47,800 nucleotides of DNA from a virus. Below are positions 3,227-47,726 of this stretch, one piece after another. The position numbers were made by a program, and so were the translations under genes. Location of the stretch: the UHGV virus genome UHGV-0066790; one strand, given 5' to 3'. The notes below the pieces were generated by a model, which saw only the letters and a list, made by a program, of their open reading frames with translations, was not told where the DNA came from and did not search any database. Every line of letters starts with the position of its first letter. The first letter of the stretch is position 1.

Positions 3227-3428
3227 AACCTCCCTTGAATCCATTATGCAGTGCTCAAAAGAGGCAATCGCGCGGGCGTATATGTGCCGGGAAACGTTTG
3301 AGACACAACAAGAATGTCCTGAAAGATGTCCCAACGGATCGTGTGTGATAGGAAGAGGTCTTTGTTGGGCCGTAACCCCACAGGACTGGGAAAAGGTGCT
3401 GAACAGCGTGCAGGAGGAGAGAGGATGA
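3219..3428 (+). CDS. Small Cys-rich hypothetical protein
   Basis: Internal ATG with GAGGAG RBS. MSETSLESIMQCSKEAIARAYMCRETFETQQECPERCPNGSC. Overlaps the previous stop. Confidence 0.35.
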   Translation: MSETSLESIMQCSKEAIARAYMCRETFETQQECPERCPNGSCVIGRGLCWAVTPQDWEKVLNSVQEERG

Positions 3429-3772
3429 CCGCACAGGAATGGATTGACGAACTGGAAAGGCTGAGGGAGGCGGCGATCATGCCGCCCTATTATCTCAGGA
3501 AGAAACTCTTTTTTGGAGAGGATGAAGAAGAATACTACATCACCGATAAAGAAGAGCGCATCATCTGCCGGATGAAATACATGTCCACAGAACCGGACAA
3601 CGCCGCATACATCGTAGCCGCGTGTAACGCCGTGCCGAGGCTGGTGGAGATGCTCAGGATTGCTGTGAGTCTTATTGAAGCTCAGAATGCACAGAGAGCA
3701 CGCAAAGGAGAAAGAATACCAGATATCGACGTGATGCAGTTGCTTTTTACCATGACGGAGCCGAAAGAATGA
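3425..3772 (+). CDS. Hypothetical protein
   Basis: ATG at 3425 after GGAGGAGAGAGG. Translationally coupled to the neighbouring genes. Confidence 0.45.
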   Translation: MTAQEWIDELERLREAAIMPPYYLRKKLFFGEDEEEYYITDKEERIICRMKYMSTEPDNAAYIVAACNAVPRLVEMLRIAVSLIEAQNAQRARKGERIPDIDVMQLLFTMTEPKE

Positions 3773-6359: not shown

Positions 6360-6572
6360 ATGGAAACGACAATCTCGGAAATCCGCTCAATCGTACAGCG
6401 GCGTCGGGAGTTAGAGATTGAAGACCAACGTCTCTACCAACGGTTTCTCGAACTGCTCGAACTCAATCAGGGGGCTAGAAAATCTTCACGCGATACGCTA
6501 TCCCTCAAAGCAGGGAAGGCGTTTTTTGCTGACGTGAAAAGGAAATCCCATGAGCGTAGCAAAGCGCGGTGA
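6360..6572 (+). CDS. Small coiled-coil protein (possibly excisionase or regulator)
   Basis: ATG at 6360 after AAAGGAGAAAGG. Immediately upstream of int and overlapping it. Confidence 0.35.
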   Translation: METTISEIRSIVQRRRELEIEDQRLYQRFLELLELNQGARKSSRDTLSLKAGKAFFADVKRKSHERSKAR

Positions 6573-7608
6573 CGGCAGATGGGCCGTCAAGTTCAAGGAT
6601 GAGGAGGGGCGCTGGAGACAGCGCTCTTTCCGTACTGAGGAAGATGCCCGGCAGTTCGATGCGGATTGCCAGTATGATGCGGTGGAAAACACACGCTTGA
6701 CGCTGTTAGAGGCGGTGCTGGTGTACTTAAAAAACACCGAACACGCCGAGAAGACCGTAGGGATTTATGAGTTCATTGTGTGCGGGCATGATCGAAAGAA
6801 TGGGGAACACAGAGAGGGGCCAGCGGAGTTCCTTGCAAACAGATTCGTGGATACATTGACTCGTCGTGACCTCGAAACTGTACGTGAGCGGTGCAGGAAT
6901 GACGGCCTCTCAACAGCAAGTATCAATATCTATGTCGGAAAGATCAAGGCTGCACTCAGTTGGTGCGTTGAACAAGACTTACTCCATGAAAACCCTTGGG
7001 AAAAATATCGACAACTCCCCGGCGTAAGAAACAAGCCACGGACAGGAACATTGGAAGACTTCCACAAACTCTTTCCTGTGCTCCCACCGTGGCTTCAATG
7101 GGCAGCAAAAACAGCCATTGCCCTATGCTTACGTCCCGGCGTGTCCGAACTTTTCCGATTGGAATGGTCGGCATTCGACTGGAAGGCTAGAACCGTGAGC
7201 GTTTACATGCCCAAAGTAGATAGCACCAAAATGGTATTTCCACCAGAGGAATATCTTCAGGAGGCCTGGGTACGCTACCAAGATGATGCGATAAACGGAC
7301 AAAGTTTGGTTTGTAGAAATAGAAAGGGAGGACGTGTGAATAAAGGGCTTTATGAGATTGCATGGAGGCGGGCTTGCCGAAAGGCCGAAGTGTCTATGCC
7401 TATGTATGCCCTGCGACATATCGCCGCGTCCGAGATGCTTTCAAGAGGCGTGGACATCGCCGCAATAGCTGCGCAGCTTGGGCACAAAGATATTACCACC
7501 ACAGGAATTTTCTACACACACGCTCTTGCCTCTTCCCAACGTCGAGCTGCGGCCGCACTCTCTTCTTGCACCAATTTGGTGCAGATTGGTGCGGCAAATA
7601 GCATCTAA
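6550..7608 (+). CDS. int: Tyrosine site-specific integrase
   Basis: C-terminal catalytic region ALRHIAASEMLSRGVDIAAIAAQLGHKDITTTGIFYTH (R...HxxR...Y) plus an N-terminal SAM-like domain. Confidence 0.85.
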   Translation: MSVAKRGDGRWAVKFKDEEGRWRQRSFRTEEDARQFDADCQYDAVENTRLTLLEAVLVYLKNTEHAEKTVGIYEFIVCGHDRKNGEHREGPAEFLANRFVDTLTRRDLETVRERCRNDGLSTASINIYVGKIKAALSWCVEQDLLHENPWEKYRQLPGVRNKPRTGTLEDFHKLFPVLPPWLQWAAKTAIALCLRPGVSELFRLEWSAFDWKARTVSVYMPKVDSTKMVFPPEEYLQEAWVRYQDDAINGQSLVCRNRKGGRVNKGLYEIAWRRACRKAEVSMPMYALRHIAASEMLSRGVDIAAIAAQLGHKDITTTGIFYTHALASSQRRAAAALSSCTNLVQIGAANSI

Positions 7609-23156: not shown

Positions 23157-23214
23157 TGCCTCTCCCTTCTGTTACTGACGAGTTAAAAAAGATAAAACTT
23201 TTTTTTGAAAAAAT

Positions 23215-23278
23215 TGTTTATTTTTTCAAAAAATGGTGCTATTGTATTTTCAACGAAAGGGACAAAAGGAGAGTTCTC
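23215..23278 (+). promoter_or_regulatory. Promoter/leader P1 with conserved -10/leader motif
   Basis: AT-rich with inverted repeats TTTTTTTTGAAAAAA/TTTTTTCAAAAAA. TATTGT then TTTTCAACGAAAGGGACAAAAGGAGA is shared with P2 at 45273-45322. Confidence 0.4.
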
Positions 23279-32617: not shown

Positions 32618-35600
32618 TTATATTCTCCTTCCCATACGTGGCTGATTGAGGATGGCGGGGTTGATGCACATGGGCCGCTTGGTATCGAAATCACGCAGCG
32701 CCTGTGTTGTGGCGTCCACTTGGTCGTCGTGGGGCGCACCGGGGAACTGTGTCAGTTCCGCGACGTACTCCCGCGCCCACGGGCAATGCTCAGGGTGCGG
32801 GAGCAGGACGTTCCCGGCCTCGAAGAACGTGGTCACGGCATGGGCCCGGGCCGTCTTGCTGCCGTCCGGCTCCACGGGGATGATACCGGGCACAGCATGT
32901 TTCAGCGCGTCGATAACCGCCGGGCCGTTGGCCTTATCCTCCACCAGCTTACGGGCTGCGCCGGGCCATTTAGCGGCGAGCGCCCGGAACGCGGCGACCG
33001 TATCCGTAAATCCCATGCGCCGCCGGACCTGATCGAGGAGGTAGCGGTCGGCCCCCTTGCGGCCCCACACCTGCCCCACAACAAAGTCGGTATCGTCGCC
33101 GTCTTTGAACGTCATATCCCACGAGATAAGGAGCTGGTCGAACTGCTCCGGAAGGTCTTTGGGGAGCCAGAACCGCAGCCACTCGGATTTGAATATGGCG
33201 CCGCCGTCTGGCGTAGGCCGCTGCTGGTACAGGGCTTCCCAGTCGCGTGTGCCGAGGGCTTTCTTAATGGCAAGAAGCTGCTCCAACGGGTAGCGTTCAG
33301 GGTGTAAGGCTTCACCTGCCCTACGGTGCAGCTCGTCTTCCGTTGCGATGGCGGGGAAGTTCACTACGCGCCAGTGGTCGCCCTCCCCCCGTGCGGCGGC
33401 CTCAAGCAGCCGCCCTGAGAGGTCAGCCATGTGCCAGCGAGTGTTGATGATGAGCACCCCTCCACCGGGCGCGAGGCGCGTGTACAGCGTGGACGTGTAC
33501 CAGTCCCAGACGTTCTGGCGGATGGTCGGGGAATCGGCGGACGCCCGGTCCTTGAACGGGTCGTCGATGATAGCGCAGTTGTGGACAAGGACACCGCCGG
33601 CAAAGAAGTTCTGATTACGTGCTACTTGGATATCAACAAAACGGCGTGCTGTTCCGTATATTCGCGCAATGTTGGCAATATGTCCCGCTTGTACTGTTCT
33701 TCTTTCATGCCGTGCAAGATCCTGTGGCACTTGCTGCACAGCGTAATCAAGTTTGTCGCAACATTGTTGATCGGAATAAGATCCATGTGATGAACCTCCA
33801 ACCGTGTTTCCTCCTTGCCACATAGAACACAACGATGCTGATCCCTGTCTAAAATCAAAGGCCGAAACTGTCGGAATGCCCGCGCAGAGTGCACCTGTTC
33901 CCGCAAGGGAGTCATGCCGTGACGGTATCGGGGATTCCCCTTGCCAGACATCAGAATAGAGTGTGCAATTTCGCTGCACCGCTTGCTGCAATACTTGGCA
34001 AAAATACCGCGTCCCCTGTGGGCAGACATAAAGAGCTTGTTGCAGATAGGGCAAATTTTTTCTCTGGGCTGATGCTCGACAGGGACCTGGCTCGGCTTCT
34101 TGAATTTTGCGGCACATTCCGGGCAGGTCTTTGCCCCTTTGGTTCTCCCTGTGTGTTTGATGATCCGTCCACAACCGGGGCACGTCTTGCTGTTCTTGAC
34201 TGCATGATGGGCACAAGAATGTTCCTTGCAGCAGTAGAAATCTTTCATCCCCTTCCTGATATTTTTGGCCACCACATAAGCCGGCCTCACAAACTCCAGG
34301 CCACACCAGGCACAAGATAGGATCACCCGTGGCAATTGATGATGCAGGGGTATATTCCCCCCGTGAAAAGATCGGATGGTTTCCTGTAACTTCAAGAACT
34401 CTGCCAAGGGCATCGCGTAATCGGTAGCTTTCTTCTGCATATCGATCCTTTACCGCTATCACTATATCAGTTTCAATTTCCCCCGTTTGATGATTGTATG
34501 ATAGCACGTTATCCCCGACTTGTAGGGTCTCGATAGCGCGATCTCCGTCAGGAGTCGCAATTTGTGTTCCAATGACAACGCATTCCGCACCCATGCCCGT
34601 GATGCCGCCGCCCACGCCAGCGGAACGGTAGCAGCCAGCGTGCCCCACCACCTCGAATATGTCCGAATTGCGGAGGTAGGAGCCGTTCCCGACTGTGCGG
34701 ATGTTCTTGCCGTACAGCGCCGTGCCGGGAAAAAGTTCCCGATATTCCGGGCTGTCGATGACGCGCTGCACGTCGCGGTTCATGCGCGAGGACAGGTCGG
34801 CGGCGTAGCTTGTGGAGATAATGGAGAGATCGGGGTAACGGCCCAAGGCGTAGGCCGGGAAACGGCGGGAGGCCAGCTCGCTATTGTGGGTTATCGTAAG
34901 GTGTTTGCCAACTAAATATAAGCCATCTGGACTATCCACCTGAATACAATTCCCCATTTTAGGCGACTCTAGCGCTCGTACACATTTGATGGATACGCGC
35001 CGACGCAGAGAAGAAAACGTTTTATTAACTTTTTTCCGTTCAAGTCTGCACGGGACAACTACACCGGAAAAGAAAAATGACACCACATAAACCTGTGACT
35101 TATTTTTAATCGTTCTTTCCCGATTATCTAGTGCTGGGATATTTGTATGCGCTACAAACCCGCATAGCATGGCCAATTCTTCTACATCATGCGCTAACAG
35201 CTCATTGGATGTTGTAAAACGATATCTGTTTGTCTTTCTATCAAAATGACCATCCGTATCAATAAGTCCAGCAAGCAAGTCAAGCCTGTTTTCTAGGCTA
35301 TCATGCTTGTACTCATTAGGAATATGTTTATTTTTTAGCAGATCAGCATCTTTTAGAGCCTGCGAAAATATATTTCTTCTATTTTTCACGCCGCTGGCAA
35401 ATGAAAAAGTTTCAACTCCAGTATCTCTATGCACCCATGTTCCAGTTATTGGCACACCTAGTCGTTCAAACTCCATTTTGACGACACAAGCGTCATCAGG
35501 AGCCATGTTTATTCTGGGCGCGATTGACGTTCCATCACCTAACCACACGCCCAAAACGTATGGCGGGATAACGTGTTCTACGGCAGGCCATTGGGGAGCA

Positions 35601-36151
35601 TCAGCTGTGTCCACCTGATACAAATACCTGTGCCCTCTGGTGTCTGGGATACCGCTATCCAGCTTCCTAAGCGCCTTAGTTTTTTTGCTTGGCTCCACAA
35701 AGTATCGTGTCTCAACTGTTCTATATCCGGGTTTAGTCCTGTCATACACCCGCCACTCATGATCAAGGTGCACATCTATTATGTCGCCATTGGTAAAAAC
35801 AACAGAATGAGTGGCAAAATTTTTCTCGCCCACAGCAACAACCCTCACAGGTTTGCCACTTGGGTGAAATACATAATCACCAACCTTAAGCGCACCATGA
35901 GTTTTCCACCCATCAACCGTCAAAACAGGAGTATCATCAGCGCACAGTTTCCCATGTCGCGGCGGCATGGTCAGCATGAGGCGCGGGGAACGTCCGGCCA
36001 CGACATCGGCAAGGAAGGCGTCCAGCTCGGAACAGATTTCCTCATGCACCCATCCCATCTTGTAGCCGGGCATGGTGTAGCGCACGAAGGCCGCGAGGCA
36101 ACTCCGGGCCAGCGCCTTCCTGATGTCGGCAAGGATGGATGGGCTACTCAT
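32618..36151 (-). CDS. terL: Terminase large subunit interrupted by two inteins
   Basis: Exteins: residues 1-69 (…MPPRHGKL, P-loop), 424-523 (…GHAGCYRSAGVGGGITGMGAE), 859-1177 (CAIIDDP... nuclease domain with HDDQVDATTQAL). Confidence 0.8.
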   Translation of the reverse strand: MSSPSILADIRKALARSCLAAFVRYTMPGYKMGWVHEEICSELDAFLADVVAGRSPRLMLTMPPRHGKLCADDTPVLTVDGWKTHGALKVGDYVFHPSGKPVRVVAVGEKNFATHSVVFTNGDIIDVHLDHEWRVYDRTKPGYRTVETRYFVEPSKKTKALRKLDSGIPDTRGHRYLYQVDTADAPQWPAVEHVIPPYVLGVWLGDGTSIAPRINMAPDDACVVKMEFERLGVPITGTWVHRDTGVETFSFASGVKNRRNIFSQALKDADLLKNKHIPNEYKHDSLENRLDLLAGLIDTDGHFDRKTNRYRFTTSNELLAHDVEELAMLCGFVAHTNIPALDNRERTIKNKSQVYVVSFFFSGVVVPCRLERKKVNKTFSSLRRRVSIKCVRALESPKMGNCIQVDSPDGLYLVGKHLTITHNSELASRRFPAYALGRYPDLSIISTSYAADLSSRMNRDVQRVIDSPEYRELFPGTALYGKNIRTVGNGSYLRNSDIFEVVGHAGCYRSAGVGGGITGMGAECVVIGTQIATPDGDRAIETLQVGDNVLSYNHQTGEIETDIVIAVKDRYAEESYRLRDALGRVLEVTGNHPIFSRGEYTPASSIATGDPILCLVWPGVCEAGLCGGQKYQEGDERFLLLQGTFLCPSCSQEQQDVPRLWTDHQTHRENQRGKDLPGMCRKIQEAEPGPCRASAQRKNLPYLQQALYVCPQGTRYFCQVLQQAVQRNCTLYSDVWQGESPIPSRHDSLAGTGALCAGIPTVSAFDFRQGSASLCSMWQGGNTVGGSSHGSYSDQQCCDKLDYAVQQVPQDLARHERRTVQAGHIANIARIYGTARRFVDIQVARNQNFFAGGVLVHNCAIIDDPFKDRASADSPTIRQNVWDWYTSTLYTRLAPGGGVLIINTRWHMADLSGRLLEAAARGEGDHWRVVNFPAIATEDELHRRAGEALHPERYPLEQLLAIKKALGTRDWEALYQQRPTPDGGAIFKSEWLRFWLPKDLPEQFDQLLISWDMTFKDGDDTDFVVGQVWGRKGADRYLLDQVRRRMGFTDTVAAFRALAAKWPGAARKLVEDKANGPAVIDALKHAVPGIIPVEPDGSKTARAHAVTTFFEAGNVLLPHPEHCPWAREYVAELTQFPGAPHDDQVDATTQALRDFDTKRPMCINPAILNQPRMGRRI
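33578..34582 (-). mobile_element. Intein 2 (Hint domain) in the terL Walker B site
   Basis: Begins CVVIGTQIATPDG, block B TGNHPIF, ends FVDIQVARNQNFFAGGVLVHN before Cys. The central region in the terL frame is low-complexity. Confidence 0.6.
33622..34440 (-). CDS. HNH endonuclease with Zn-ribbon repeats, encoded in a different frame inside intein 2
   Basis: Multiple CxxC pairs. C-terminal HNH motif CVLCGKEETRLEVHHMDLIPINNVATNLITLCSKCHRILHG. Frame is +1 relative to terL. Confidence 0.65.
   Translation of the reverse strand: MQKKATDYAMPLAEFLKLQETIRSFHGGNIPLHHQLPRVILSCAWCGLEFVRPAYVVAKNIRKGMKDFYCCKEHSCAHHAVKNSKTCPGCGRIIKHTGRTKGAKTCPECAAKFKKPSQVPVEHQPREKICPICNKLFMSAHRGRGIFAKYCSKRCSEIAHSILMSGKGNPRYRHGMTPLREQVHSARAFRQFRPLILDRDQHRCVLCGKEETRLEVHHMDLIPINNVATNLITLCSKCHRILHGMKEEQYKRDILPTLREYTEQHAVLLISK
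34883..35944 (-). mobile_element. Intein 1 (Hint + double LAGLIDADG homing endonuclease) in the terL Walker A site
   Basis: Begins CADDTPVLTVDGW, contains LGVWLGDGTS and LLAGLIDTDGHF, ends ...VGKHLTITHN before Ser. Confidence 0.7.
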
Positions 36152-40510: not shown

Positions 40511-42301
40511 TCATTCTCCGTAAAAATCTATTATTTCTTGCGTCTTTTGAATCTCTGCAATCTGCTTGCAGTAATCGCCGATTGAATCAATGAGGCGTTT
40601 CCTGTCTTTTTCAGCCCAAAAAACCAAATGTGGGTTGTAATCCGGTATCTCCTGAATAGGTGAGGAGTCATAAAAATAACCATCAAGCAGCCTAAAGAAC
40701 TGTTCTCTTCCTTCAGGATTGAATCCTGATCTATAGTTCTTGCATTTGGTCACCTTCATGCTTCCAACTATGCCGTTTGGGAGATGCCCGTGCGTGAAAA
40801 GAGAAATGCCGAGTCTTGCTTTTTCGAGAGTGAATTCCCCACCTCTTCCGAACATCTCCCCTTTCTTCTTCTGAATCGTAATGATTGCGATTCCATTTTG
40901 AAGACGATCAAAAATCTTTTTGATGTCTCCCCCTATTTTCGAAAAATCTTCATAAACTTCCAAGAAATCAACAATATTGATGCCATTTGGGTCTATGGCA
41001 TCATGAAAATGATTGGAACGCTGAATAAACGTTGTAAATTTCGACCATTCTTCAACCGCAAGCCCAAAACGTTCTATGCGTCCCCTGATTTCATTCGGCG
41101 TCATTTCAGAAGAGAGATAGCGGATCTTGTGCTTGTGCCTGTTCATGTAGCAAAAATTGAAAAGCAGGCCCGTCTTCCCCGAGTTTGTTTCGCCAGCGAT
41201 CACGATGATATTCCGGGGCTGGACAAAGCACATTCTGTGAAGTCCAAAGGGGAGCCACAAATCCAACGGTGGGGTTTCCTCTTGTACAAGGTCTATGACT
41301 TCCAATCCGCTTTCACGCTTGCGATACCATCCGGAGCGTTTCCCGCAGGGCTCGATTTCCCCACGAGAAAGAAGCTCCCGAAGTTCCTGCTGGCACAGTT
41401 CCCTGTCTTCGGCTTTCAGGATGCCAAGATCGCGGTAAATATCTGCAATGCAAAACTCGCCCGAAGACATGGCAACCCAGCGGGATACCCCCCCTGCGTT
41501 GAGCTTCTGTGGGTTTCTGTTCCTGTGTGTCGAAGCCATGCTCCGCACAATCGTGTTCACTTCCGTGTCCGGCAACGGTGGTTTGCAGTGCGCACGGTTC
41601 CATGCCTGCGCATACAGCAAAACCTCTTCCCCCCGCAGCCCCCTGGCGTACATCCTCCCGCAAAGACTGGTAATCGCCTGATTTCTACCGCCCTTTTGAA
41701 CGTCAGCATCATGATCCGTCGCCGAACCATCCTGGACTTCTTTGACCTCGTATTTATCTTCACCCACTCGAACCAGCTGGATATCCGGCAGGGGGACAAG
41801 GGAATCTATGCCGGAAAAGCCATCAAGCTGATGCGCCCGATACTCCGCCCCGGAAGGGTGTATCGACGGAGCAAACACGACATAGGAGCCATCCCCGCGC
41901 ACGTCGATTTCATCGTTCACCAGCGAGACGGACGGAGGAATACGCCTTCCCCCGCCGGGATGCTGATAGAACGCGTGGAACTTGTCCTTTGCCGAAGTCA
42001 TTTGGTACCAGTTGGGGCGCGGCATATGAGACTTGAACCACGCTTGACCCTTCGGCCCGTCGACATCGATCGCCACCACGCCCGAAACTTCGCCGCATAC
42101 CAGTGCGATATTTGCGTTGGGCTCGATTTCAAACCAGCCGCGGATTTCTTCAGGCGTGGGTATCCTATGCTGAAATTCTTCCCATTTTCCGCCGGGAAGA
42201 GCCTTTGCCAATGGGCGCTTTGACTGCGGAACGAGCGGAATGACGCTGCATCCCATCGCCTGCAACCTGAGCGCGGATTCAAGACAACGGGCGGCCATCA
42301 C
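40511..42301 (-). CDS. Bifunctional primase-polymerase (PrimPol + PriCT-1) fused to a RecA-like/DnaB-like helicase ATPase
   Basis: N-terminus SVIPLVPQSKRPL...NIALVCGEVSGVVAIDVD (Prim-Pol). Middle NQAITSLCGRMYARGLRGEEVLLYAQAWN (PriCT). C-terminus IIVIAGETNSGKTGLL Walker A. Confidence 0.75.
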   Translation of the reverse strand: MMAARCLESALRLQAMGCSVIPLVPQSKRPLAKALPGGKWEEFQHRIPTPEEIRGWFEIEPNANIALVCGEVSGVVAIDVDGPKGQAWFKSHMPRPNWYQMTSAKDKFHAFYQHPGGGRRIPPSVSLVNDEIDVRGDGSYVVFAPSIHPSGAEYRAHQLDGFSGIDSLVPLPDIQLVRVGEDKYEVKEVQDGSATDHDADVQKGGRNQAITSLCGRMYARGLRGEEVLLYAQAWNRAHCKPPLPDTEVNTIVRSMASTHRNRNPQKLNAGGVSRWVAMSSGEFCIADIYRDLGILKAEDRELCQQELRELLSRGEIEPCGKRSGWYRKRESGLEVIDLVQEETPPLDLWLPFGLHRMCFVQPRNIIVIAGETNSGKTGLLFNFCYMNRHKHKIRYLSSEMTPNEIRGRIERFGLAVEEWSKFTTFIQRSNHFHDAIDPNGINIVDFLEVYEDFSKIGGDIKKIFDRLQNGIAIITIQKKKGEMFGRGGEFTLEKARLGISLFTHGHLPNGIVGSMKVTKCKNYRSGFNPEGREQFFRLLDGYFYDSSPIQEIPDYNPHLVFWAEKDRKRLIDSIGDYCKQIAEIQKTQEIIDFYGE

Positions 42302-43452
42302 AGCAACCCCTCGGCCTCAAGCTCGGCATACATGCGGTCGCAGTTCTCCTCCACCTGCTCGACAGTCAGGCCCGGTTTCCACATCCCGCCGTTGTACTTC
42401 GCATAAATCGCGGAAGCCCTTTCATTCCTCGCCCGCTGTTCCGGCGTCGTATCGCTGAAACAGCCCGCATCTTCCCAGCCACGATTGTGCAGCCATGTCG
42501 AGAAATAGGGCACGTATTTCCCGTTTTCTCGCTCCCAATCGGGCTCGAACTTGCGATACGTTATGCGCTCGATGAGGTCGTCCGTTTCCGGCAATGCGCC
42601 AGCTTTCAAAAGCTCCATGTAGGCCTTGTAAGCCTTTCCCTTGGCATCCTTGCGCGGGTATTTGGCCCAAATTCGCTCGAACTGCTCGGTGTACGGTGGA
42701 AGATCCGCCCCTTTCGGCATACGCGGTGTCTTCGCTTTTCGGCCCTTCGCCTCACATGGCCTGGTGTCCATGCTGTTGGCGCGGCTACCGGTGTCCGACG
42801 TGTTCGTAACATCGCCATTCGGGGGGCAGCACGGCCTAGGTTCCATGCCGCCCGCCTGAAGGCTGCTCTGAGCCTTGATTTCATCTGCGGCCAAACTGGC
42901 CTCACATGGCCTGGTATCCATGCTGTTGGCACTGGTTCCGCAACTGAGTTCGTACTCGTCCGCACACACTTTCCCCCCCGTGGGGGGTAAGGGGGGTGTA
43001 TTTATTCTTTCTTTCTTACCTTCTTTGATAGTGTCCACTGGTCGACCATCGGTTGACCAGTGGTTGACCATCGGTTGACCACAGTTGTTTTCTACAGACT
43101 GATAACTATGCCAATTTGTTATAGTTACAAGCGTATATCGGTTGTTCATGTTTGAGCGCGTCAGGAAGCCGTCAAGTTCAAGATTCCGCAACATGCGAAC
43201 AACCGAAGTTCTGGGTATGTCGAGTTCATCCGCAAGGCACTCACCGCTGAACGCCAGCTGACCCGGCAGGATTTTTTGCCCGTGAAAGTACCCTTGCTTC
43301 CAGTTCGCCTTCTGGAGAAGGGTAATCATCAGCCCACGATACAGTGCGCCCCGACTCCACGCCTTCGAGTCCTCTATTTTTCGATAGATTTTGAAAAAAC
43401 CGCGTTCCATATTACACCTTTCCCTTGACGGAACGCCTAGCATCTGGCACAC
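42298..43452 (-). CDS. Replication initiator (lambda O-like / replisome organiser) with iterons embedded in the coding sequence
   Basis: N-terminal winged-helix region MERGFFKIYRKIEDSKAWSRGALYRGLMITLL...LADELDIPRTSVVRMLRNLELDGFL. Low-complexity linker encoded by direct repeats. Conserved C-terminal domain. Confidence 0.55.
   Translation of the reverse strand: MCQMLGVPSRERCNMERGFFKIYRKIEDSKAWSRGALYRGLMITLLQKANWKQGYFHGQKILPGQLAFSGECLADELDIPRTSVVRMLRNLELDGFLTRSNMNNRYTLVTITNWHSYQSVENNCGQPMVNHWSTDGRPVDTIKEGKKERINTPPLPPTGGKVCADEYELSCGTSANSMDTRPCEASLAADEIKAQSSLQAGGMEPRPCCPPNGDVTNTSDTGSRANSMDTRPCEAKGRKAKTPRMPKGADLPPYTEQFERIWAKYPRKDAKGKAYKAYMELLKAGALPETDDLIERITYRKFEPDWERENGKYVPYFSTWLHNRGWEDAGCFSDTTPEQRARNERASAIYAKYNGGMWKPGLTVEQVEENCDRMYAELEAEGLL
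42750..43130. repeat. Candidate origin of replication (iterons, direct repeats, inverted repeat)
   Basis: 4 x 11-bp tandem GGT(C/T)GACCA(T/G)N at 43040-43083. 30-bp direct repeat CCTCACATGGCCTGGT(G/A)TCCATGCTGTTGGC at 42750 and 42900 with a degenerate copy at about 42832. C7-GT-G6 hairpin at about 42975. AT-rich IR TAACTAT..ATAGTTA at about 43103-43127. Confidence 0.5.
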
Positions 43453-43530
43453 TCATTCCATCATTCTGATGAATTCGCATGTTTCATCTTCCCTTGGCCC
43501 GATGTTCCCGCATCGGGCCTTTTCTTTTGC

Positions 43531-46991: not shown

Positions 46992-47145
46992 TTCCAACGT
47001 CTACATGAAGCACGCCAAGGTATCACTGGAACGGCCTAAAAAGGTTGACCGGGCTAGAGTTGCTGCGGTCATCATCTTTATGGCTGTCATGCTCGGTATC
47101 TGCATTCTTCCACAGATCTTGTACGGGATGGAGGCCATGCGATGA
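46988..47145 (+). CDS. Small membrane protein (52 aa)
   Basis: ATGA coupling on both sides. TM helix AAVIIFMAVMLGICILPQIL. Confidence 0.35.
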
Positions 47146-47726
47146 ATCAAGAGGAACTTGACCAATTCATATCGTGGCTTCTGGCTCACGGTTCGGAAGT
47201 GCTTGCCCCAACGAATCCCTATGAACTCTTGAGGTTTACCACCCAAGACGGCGTGGCAATCATCTTCAAGGACGCTGACGGGGAAATCACGAAAGACAGG
47301 AATGGGGCTTTCGAGGTTCTCCGGTGCTTTCGGAAAAAACGCAACTGGAACGGAGGCGGAAAGAGGGAACGGAAACCCCGCAGTGCTTCAAGACGCAGGT
47401 TGCTGGTCAACTCAATCGCAAAACGCGACGGGTGGAACTGCATGTACTGCGGAGCAACGCTGACGCTTGAGACAGCAACGATAGAACATATCGTTCCCCT
47501 TGCCGGAAATGGGCTTGATGACCTGCGGAACATGACTCTCGCCTGTGCGGAGTGCAACCGCGAGGCGGGGCATCTGAGTGCCCGGCAAAAGGTGGAACTG
47601 GCTATGAAAAAGAGAGGGGATGTGATGAGCCCGGAATGCGACATGTACGACGCGGAGAGGGAAGGCGTAGACCGCACGATTCCCGATGAACCAGAATACT
47701 ACGGCCCCGACAAGGGGCCTTTTTAA
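47142..47726 (+). CDS. HNH endonuclease
   Basis: CMYCGATLTLETATIEHIVPLAGNGLDDLRNMTLACAECNREAGH HNH motif. Confidence 0.7.
   Translation: MNQEELDQFISWLLAHGSEVLAPTNPYELLRFTTQDGVAIIFKDADGEITKDRNGAFEVLRCFRKKRNWNGGGKRERKPRSASRRRLLVNSIAKRDGWNCMYCGATLTLETATIEHIVPLAGNGLDDLRNMTLACAECNREAGHLSARQKVELAMKKRGDVMSPECDMYDAEREGVDRTIPDEPEYYGPDKGPF

Follow-up and report, generated by a model that had tools for sequence, protein, structure and literature searches.

Examination of a 47,800-nucleotide (nt) stretch of viral DNA (UHGV virus genome UHGV-0066790; hereafter the window) indicated that a short segment lying inside a replication initiator gene is, with high probability, where vegetative replication of a temperate Bilophila myovirus originates. 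The evidence base was computational throughout. Read along the coding strand of the gene, the elements of this predicted origin follow a fixed order comprising four to five direct 11-nt repeats (iterons), a 36-base-pair (bp) A/T-rich purine tract, and a C6TTAC6-N-G7 block (the C/G block), the positions of which are collected in Table 1. Support for the origin assignment came from an iteron array that was both statistically significant and unique in the window, from the match of the gene product to initiator profiles in PHROG, and from the presence of a Prim-Pol/helicase gene immediately after it; further support was provided by the family-wide conservation of the layout, by iterons that track the recognition region of the protein, and by the corresponding position of the origin of phage lambda. 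The location of an origin within an initiator gene has established precedents in lambda (PMC7466680, PMC8508860), in gene 38 of phage SPP1 (PMC6316719) and in the rep gene of plasmid pSK41 (PMC5703833).

Table 1. Positions in the window of the predicted origin elements, the initiator gene with its domains, and adjoining features.
Feature	Position	Strand	Remarks
Iteron array	43029-43081		Four 11-nt units plus one degenerate unit beside the A/T tract
A/T-rich tract	42997-43032		ACTATCAAAGAAGGTAAGAAAGAAAGAATAAATACA on coding strand; 36 bp, 75% A+T, 78% purine (coding strand)
C/G block	42973-42996		Plus strand C7-GT-G6-TAA-G6; coding strand C6TTAC6-AC-G7; abuts A/T tract
Direct repeat, copy 1 (coding order)	42899-42940		Encodes GTSANSMDTRPCEA; bounds 150-nt block absent from L008/L009
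Direct repeat, copy 2	42749-42790		Encodes GSRANSMDTRPCEA
Replication initiator gene	42298-43410	-	370 amino acids from ATG 43410; N-domain, disordered linker and C-domain; from open reading frame list
N-terminal winged-helix DNA-binding domain (N-domain), amino acids 1-104	43099-43410	-	Ends in family motif TITNWHSYQ
Helical C-terminal domain (C-domain), amino acids ~240-370	42298-42693	-	FERIWAKYPRK...WLHNRGWED type
Partner gene, overlaps initiator stop	40511-42301	-	Prim-Pol + PriCT-1 + RecA/DnaB-like ATPase (primase-helicase)
Terminator-like hairpin with T tail	43496-43530	+	Opposite strand, initiator leader; 10 pairs, 7 G-C

The iteron core reads GGTYGACCA on the plus strand, equivalent to TGGTCRACC on the coding strand, and is represented by GGTCGACCA at 43040-43048 and by GGTTGACCA at 43051-59, 43062-70 and 43073-81, the spacing being exactly 11 nt, with a degenerate fifth unit (GTGTCCAC) at approximately 43029-43038. 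Tandem Repeats Finder recorded the array with a period of 11 (3.8 copies, score 63) and with a period of 22 (score 82). Exact copies of GGTYGACCA occurred five times in the window, all of them within the array, against a mean of 0.81 in 100 shuffled sequences, none of which reached five: the four tandem 11-bp iterons that a first-pass annotation of the same DNA had placed in the linker-coding part of the gene were thereby confirmed. A search of the rest of the window allowing one mismatch returned 26 matches as against 21 expected, and hence no second array; a group of three iteron-like matches at 47043-47412 was rejected as within chance. The array would constitute the binding site of the N-domain of the initiator. 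Scanning both strands for promoters detected no sigma-70-like example inside the origin.

The A/T-rich tract adjoining the array was near-identical in the related locus L001 despite an identity of only 41% between the two initiator proteins, and throughout the family an A+T maximum of 0.66-0.68, compared with ~0.54, was located 50-80 nt past the NWxYQ motif that closes the N-domain. The tract is consequently best regarded as a candidate DNA-unwinding element. The C/G block, which had also been anticipated beside the iterons as a C7-GT-G6 hairpin, is present next to the tract, and its 15-mer CCCCCCTTACCCCCC was identical in the window, L001, L004, L007, L011 and L132.

Comparisons were conducted with a sample of 133 related loci drawn from metagenomes, viral contigs, reference genomes and two cultured phages, the family statistics being calculated on non-redundant loci (n = 95 for autocorrelation; n = 99 for the test of blocks of four 11-nt units). 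The N-domain end motif across the family is [TS][IVL]xNWxxYQ. Over the 70 nt past NWxYQ, the mean 11-nt autocorrelation was 0.573, control segments taken from these loci giving 0.266, and 11 nt was the best period in 83% of the 95 loci. A block of four 11-nt units with an internal identity of at least 0.6 was detected in 85 of the 99 loci and in none of 491 control segments (control maximum 0.561), and this recurrence of the same layout at the same position lends support to the earlier proposal of an iteron-type origin within the initiator gene. Relatives with a DNA-binding domain followed by an 11-nt array and then an A/T tract come from several phyla, and a phmmer search with the N-domain alone yielded 1,926 clusters at 50% identity (E ≤ 1e-3). 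The same layout was found in the two cultured phages, in ORF30 of Lactobacillus phage phiAT3 (four copies of TGTCAATCAA) and in gp23 of Staphylococcus phage phiNM3 (seven units), both of which are annotated only as DnaD-like helicase loaders. No in-gene 11-nt arrays were found described for the NWxYQ initiator family in the open-access literature searched, which is not proof of novelty.

The sequence of the iteron varies by lineage and follows the recognition helix and wing region of the N-domain. Its core is TGGTCAACC in the clades of the window and L001, CGCACAAC in the LSRYQVMRML..FGKVCT clade, TGAACAAC in the QIEQQ clade and TAACCAAC in the STNEITI clade, the corresponding cores of L004, L007 and L110 being CCTAACCAGC, TGGGYGACC and CTGTCCA, respectively. 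Repeats that are uniform within a locus and different between lineages present the pattern predicted for binding sites co-evolving with the protein that recognises them.

As the first-pass annotation had suggested from the low-complexity linker and its repeated peptide ANSMDTRPCEA, the constraint on the linker-coding stretch acts on the DNA and not on the peptide, as judged from the 11-nt periodicity, the conservation of third codon positions and a C/G block read in different frames. Because of the period, successive iteron copies fall in different reading frames, the copies of GGTCAACC being translated as GQP, VN, ST and GRP. Third-position identity between the window and L001 was 0.67-0.92 over amino acids 109-132 and 0.17-0.5 elsewhere, remaining low outside this interval even in segments with 83% protein identity, so that synonymous-site conservation was confined to the origin stretch; and C6TTAC6 is kept as DNA while its frame changes, reading PPLPP in the window and PLTP in L001 and L007. 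Were the repeats a by-product of a low-complexity linker under peptide constraint, devoid of any cis-acting function in the DNA, a disordered and compositionally biased linker containing a repeated peptide is indeed what the region would be expected to encode; however, a period that is not a multiple of three, together with the third-position and frame data and the dispensability of the equivalent linker peptide in pSK41 (PMC5703833), renders that explanation scarcely credible. It is also unlikely that the repeats are true initiator sites serving a regulatory purpose (titration or handcuffing, copy control, autoregulation) while initiation occurs elsewhere in the genome. A passage in PMC3401445 has plasmid iterons serving both initiation and control, and the second origin of SPP1 lies outside gene 38 (PMC6316719), but the absence of any other copy of the motif from the window, including the region upstream of the gene, makes an operator at the gene's own promoter unlikely, and the invariable A/T tract beside the array resembles an unwinding element and not a control site.

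A further explanation, that the A/T tract and C/G block are kept mainly as a recombination junction of microhomology between a specificity module and a helicase-recruiting module, draws on the fact that mosaic breakpoints between relatives fall exactly at these two elements. Relatives P0005 and P0007 have other N-domains with their own iterons, yet are identical from KKERINTPPLPPTGG onward, while P0014, P0022 and L013 retain the N-domain up to KKERINT plus the iterons, followed by different C-domains and by a different partner, which is either unrecognisable or a Toprim-DnaB primase-helicase; the C-domain is exchanged between relatives as a module. At 2730-2850 in L132, a DUF6291-type N-domain is accompanied by its own in-gene AAACCTAG repeats (four to five copies), an A/T tract and C6ATAC6, and a remnant of the window-type A/T tract with C6TTAC6ACG7 lies 116 nt after this module: the gene therefore contains two origin-like modules in tandem. 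A junction of this kind would nevertheless leave unexplained both the iterons and a strand-specific block that always follows the A/T tract in unrelated initiator families, and since recombination at the block could equally follow from a conserved functional element, we consider it improbable as the main reason for conservation.

A number of observations weigh against the assignment of the segment as the origin. Cumulative G+C skew between 41.5 and 44.5 kb passed the site of the array without inflection, and around 14 of the 99 relatives were without a clear array of four 11-nt units. The loci are mutually related phylogenetically, so that locus counts do not represent independent events, though iteron sequences do vary between clades. 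The clades of the window and L001 share one common iteron at an N-domain identity of just 46-49%, and the match between iteron and protein is therefore class-wise, not strict. Homology with the initiators of the three precedents was likewise elusive: hhalign of the family alignment A3 with lambda O gave a probability of 0.45% (E 0.13), no Pfam match to Phage_rep_O (PF04492) was obtained at E ≤ 0.01 and only two of 26 diverse N-domains reached E 0.003, RepA_N (PF06970) was not matched in Pfam/NCBIfam searches, and the SPP1-type Phage_rep_org_N (PF09681) was not matched in Pfam. Foldseek comparisons with the RepA_N structures 4pql, 4pt7 and 5kbj (E 0.025-0.07) were no better than those with generic winged helix-turn-helix (wHTH) regulators. 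The sole profile link to lambda O was PHROG 345, 'O-like' (1.1e-7), and the description of the initiator as O-like consequently holds for its architecture, whereas homology was undetectable by hhalign or as a Phage_rep_O match.

If the segment is the origin, its operation can be envisaged from the binding, melting and recruitment steps known for lambda O, SPP1 G38P and pSK41 Rep, on which the corresponding steps proposed here are modelled. N-domains would bind successive repeats one helical turn apart, and hence on a single face of the DNA, to form a nucleoprotein complex, the strain of which would melt the adjoining A/T tract. The C-domain would then recruit the Prim-Pol/helicase, the product of the downstream gene that overlaps that of the initiator, and this enzyme would unwind and prime the DNA for elongation by the host polymerase. 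The C/G block might either bound the melted region as a clamp or fold when single-stranded, thereby aiding loading.

The closest parallel in layout is with lambda, in which the iterons correspond to amino acids 117-145 of O, as compared with 110-124 here: both have four repeats and an adjoining A/T tract inside the initiator gene, just past the N-terminal DNA-binding domain. In lambda, the four repeats are occupied by four O dimers, one dimer per iteron (PMC8508860), and the C-terminal part of O serves to recruit a helicase system whose gene comes next (PMC7466680, PMC8508860). The two arrays nevertheless differ in that annotation gives the lambda iterons as 18-nt features with a spacing of 20-24 nt, whereas the window units are 11 nt, direct, and one helical turn apart. 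Lambda iterons are approximately 19 bp in length and dyad-symmetric, unlike the window core TGGTYRACCA, which is only a short near-palindrome. Lambda also lacks the C6TTAC6 block, and its partner is P plus host DnaB where that of the window is a Prim-Pol/helicase fusion.

The Rep protein of pSK41 (RepA_N) shares the same plan, with a winged-helix N-terminal domain, an origin-encoded linker and a helical C-terminal domain, the boxes being central in the gene. Four Rep boxes lie within rep, the linker is dispensable as peptide, and the C-terminal domain contacts the priming machinery (PMC5703833). It differs from the window in being a plasmid and not a phage system, in its repeats, and in relying on host DnaG as opposed to a Prim-Pol/helicase partner. 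In SPP1, G38P binds direct repeats beside an A/T-rich unwinding element in its own gene 38 (oriL), with a helicase loader and a helicase encoded downstream and a second origin, oriR, outside the gene (PMC6316719); no second array was found in the window. The layout of iterons and A/T tract inside an initiator gene is thus already well known. The window differs from these systems in an N-domain family unmodelled by Pfam/NCBIfam, direct 11-nt units, the Prim-Pol/helicase partner, and the C/G block.

Homologues of the initiator start at MERGFF. The protein matched PHROG 270 ('replication initiation protein', 1.7e-18), PHROG 2514 ('DnaD-like helicase loader', 1.6e-17) and PHROG 186 (4.9e-11) in addition to PHROG 345, the matches to PHROG 2514 and PHROG 186 covering amino acids 2-135, and the C-domain matched PHROG 9327 ('primosomal protein', 7e-14) as well as PHROG 9474 and PHROG 270. 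Its profile match, combined with a domain end of the [TS][IVL]xNWxxYQ form, places the initiator in the PHROG 2514/186 N-domain family, to which phiAT3 ORF30 and phiNM3 gp23 belong by annotation; no Pfam DnaB_2 match was obtained for the C-domain, which is accordingly not classed as a DnaD/DnaB_2 C-terminal domain. Searches against Pfam and NCBIfam returned nothing above threshold, weak generic wHTH matches (TrmB, IclR, MarR) apart, PDB sequence searches, whether by single protein or by profile, returned only generic wHTH regulators (E ≥ 0.003), and a Foldseek comparison of the model with PDB returned nothing below E 0.02.

An AlphaFold2 model, prepared from a shallow alignment of 17 sequences, predicted folded regions at amino acids 10-105 (predicted local distance difference test, pLDDT, 85-90) and 240-366 (helical, pLDDT 75-89), with helices at 56-63 and 67-79 and a wing at 83-97 in the N-domain, and a disordered region at 106-228 (pLDDT ~30). 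The A/T tract corresponds to amino acids 127-138, the C/G block to 139-146, and two longer direct repeats (vide infra) to 157-171 and 207-221, and as these elements and the iterons all map to 106-228, every one of them sits where the protein is least constrained. The partner gene product matched Pfam Prim-Pol (1e-30), PriCT_1 (8e-12) and a KaiC-type ATPase (3.6e-4), together with PHROG 19 ('DnaB-like helicase'), and the same gene comes next after the initiator in L008, L011, L132, L001, L004 and L007; the putative role of the initiator C-domain is recruitment of the helicase. As a separate observation, one viral contig (L020) carried two genes of the initiator family, at 3303 and 5571 and thus ~2.3 kb apart, the second of which (P0067-like) contained only a weak repeat of ~12 nt (CTGAACAACCG, two to three copies).

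Two other features originally listed with the iterons do not belong to the core of the origin. An A/T-rich segment with an inverted repeat is present as described, at 43085-43135 (G+C 0.33), its 12-nt arms at 43103-43114 and 43116-43127 being 83% complementary and lying within codons for VTITNWHSY. However, what this stretch codes for is the conserved terminus of the winged-helix domain, and relatives were without an inverted repeat at the same site. The conserved A/T tract, and thus the one predicted to melt, is instead that at 42997-43032, on the opposite side of the iterons. The direct repeats 150 nt apart are also present (42 nt, 88% identical), encoding the repeated peptide ANSMDTRPCEA, and a weak third copy at 42830-42848, about midway, reduces the spacing to 75 nt. 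As candidate origin elements they were ruled out by a clean deletion in the DNA of L008 between the two copies, which leaves one hybrid copy, and by their complete absence from more distant relatives; the 320-amino-acid relatives P0002-P0004 similarly have exactly 50 amino acids fewer and a single hybrid copy. Since relatives carry such a deletion, the direct repeats are an indel-prone and dispensable part of the linker.

With regard to the C/G block, its 6-bp hairpin was not thermodynamically unusual (z -0.7 to -1.7), and a 'stable hairpin' alone therefore leaves the conservation of the block unexplained. A link between the block and the Prim-Pol partner was rejected on the evidence of L013, which has C16ACG7 with a Toprim-DnaB partner, and of L061, which has C5TTAC5 and no primase gene detectable downstream. 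In L013 (~3430-3460), an uninterrupted C16 followed by ACG7 replaces C6TTAC6 and the reading enters a different C-domain; such long homopolymer runs may be susceptible to slippage.

When IMG/VR was scanned for exact copies of CCCCCCTTACCCCCC, at least 119 stretches were obtained; on a rough estimate, chance alone could yield a count of similar size. Among the matches listed, 23 of 113 evaluable stretches had a G-run of at least five within 14 nt, and 19 of these 23 lay in open reading frames of 229-431 amino acids, the median for the other stretches being 71. In the same listed matches, the G-run stretches were preceded by purine-rich tracts and often also by tandem repeats of unrelated sequence and period, their frames being PPLPP (9), PLTP (9) and PPYPP (4) over the 23, and all ten of the proteins tested were replication initiation proteins from several PHROG families. 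The listed loci with C6TTAC6 plus a G-run in the linker-coding part of an initiator gene were L146, L149, L151, L153, L158, L171, L172, L175, L179, L197, L198, L201, L204, L228, L229, L233, L236, L237 and L250. Two other classes of match were also recorded. Some 20-25 viral contigs among the matches listed contained a different conserved C-rich block, ...GGAAAAGACCCTATTCCTACCCCTACACCCAAT-C6TTAC6-TTTCCCTCTTCCCCATAAAAACGTACTAC, outside long open reading frames (including L138, L145, L148, L154, L162, L170, L174, L193, L196, L212, L214, L235 and L248), and a third class, TTTAACAAGAGAA-C6TTAC6-TTTTATGAA, comprised L134, L140, L147, L190, L194 and L232.

In a string search of the literature, the 15-mer was encountered solely as conserved sequence block II (CSB-2) of vertebrate mitochondria, the gecko form of which, AAACCCCCCTTACCCCCC (PMC6295329), is string-identical to it. 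CSB-2 and the phage block are further alike in being situated at a replication origin, predicted in the case of the phage, beside an A/T-rich stretch. In mitochondria, a G-rich nascent RNA at CSB II forms the replication primer by way of a hybrid G-quadruplex or R-loop (PMC3488243, PMC4176368). In the phage, by contrast, the initiator mRNA corresponds to the C-rich strand, its G-rich counterpart being antisense: a G-rich RNA would therefore need antisense transcription, the evidence for which is only indirect, and the likeness is a lead and not a result. A conserved terminator on the antisense strand lies 500 nt beyond the block, and the promoter scan found no promoter for it. The C-rich strand might fold into a hairpin or C+.G-C triplex; were antisense transcription to cross the block, the G-rich strand might instead adopt a G-quadruplex or R-loop. 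A structure of this type could capture the open complex, assist in loading the helicase or give rise to the primer. That C6TTAC6-N(1-6)-G(5-7) is a dedicated, strand-specific origin element, common to many unrelated phage initiator families and placed in every case after iterons and a purine-rich A/T tract, which adopts a non-B structure and so parallels in phages the mechanism of mitochondrial CSB II, is nonetheless a speculative and rather unlikely proposition. Should the block prove functional, it would raise the question of whether the firing of phage origins involves non-B structures of DNA or RNA.

The antisense terminator in question is the hairpin in the initiator leader, ~90-120 nt upstream of the start codon, which was kept with different, compensating stems in L011, L014, L032, L094, L002 and L132. 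Its position is reminiscent of the countertranscripts lambda oop RNA and pSK41 RNAI, the antisense RNA of pSK41 acting on the rep leader (PMC5703833), and a countertranscript may end there, possibly as part of the origin system. No promoter for such a transcript was found in the scan, and Rfam returned sub-threshold matches only, the hairpin scoring 26 bits against the small RNA mmgR (41 needed).

A prediction of this sort would supply a rule, both simple and open to test, for finding replication origins across a very large number of phages and prophages, as represented by the N-domain clusters; some relatives are currently named MarR family regulators (NCBI, UniRef) and one a biotin operon repressor (JGI). 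Dozens of 11-nt sites are naturally paired with their recognition regions, a resource from which a winged-helix recognition code could be deduced, or orthogonal origins constructed for anaerobes in which genetic manipulation is difficult (Bilophila, Desulfovibrio).

Pfam and PHROG profile searches identified the window (overall G+C 56%) as a temperate myovirus prophage with an integrase at 6550-7608 and structural, terminase and regulatory genes, the set including tail sheath, baseplate, portal, protease, large terminase, a Mor-type late activator and an anti-repressor. Comparison of the replication-region DNA with 50,697 GenBank phages gave no matches, and the phage therefore has no close cultured relative; genes identical to its own, or nearly so, were carried by IMG/VR contigs 41-46 kb long and by assemblies of Bilophila wadsworthia. 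The large terminase open reading frame (32618-36151, minus strand) encodes 1177 amino acids, of which 53-435 and 858-1159 matched terminase profiles, and the insert of ~420 amino acids between them, which gave a weak helicase-family match, may be an intein or an inserted domain. Two further tandem repeats were recorded in the window: an 11-copy array of the 15-nt unit GCCAACCTGCGGGGT (87% matches) at 28-195, at the left end and outside the prophage core, and 2.1 copies of the 20-nt unit TTTTTTCAAAAAATGGTCTA at 23201-23243, in the gap between opposed blocks of open reading frames (~23.1-23.3 kb), where it may be a regulatory site.

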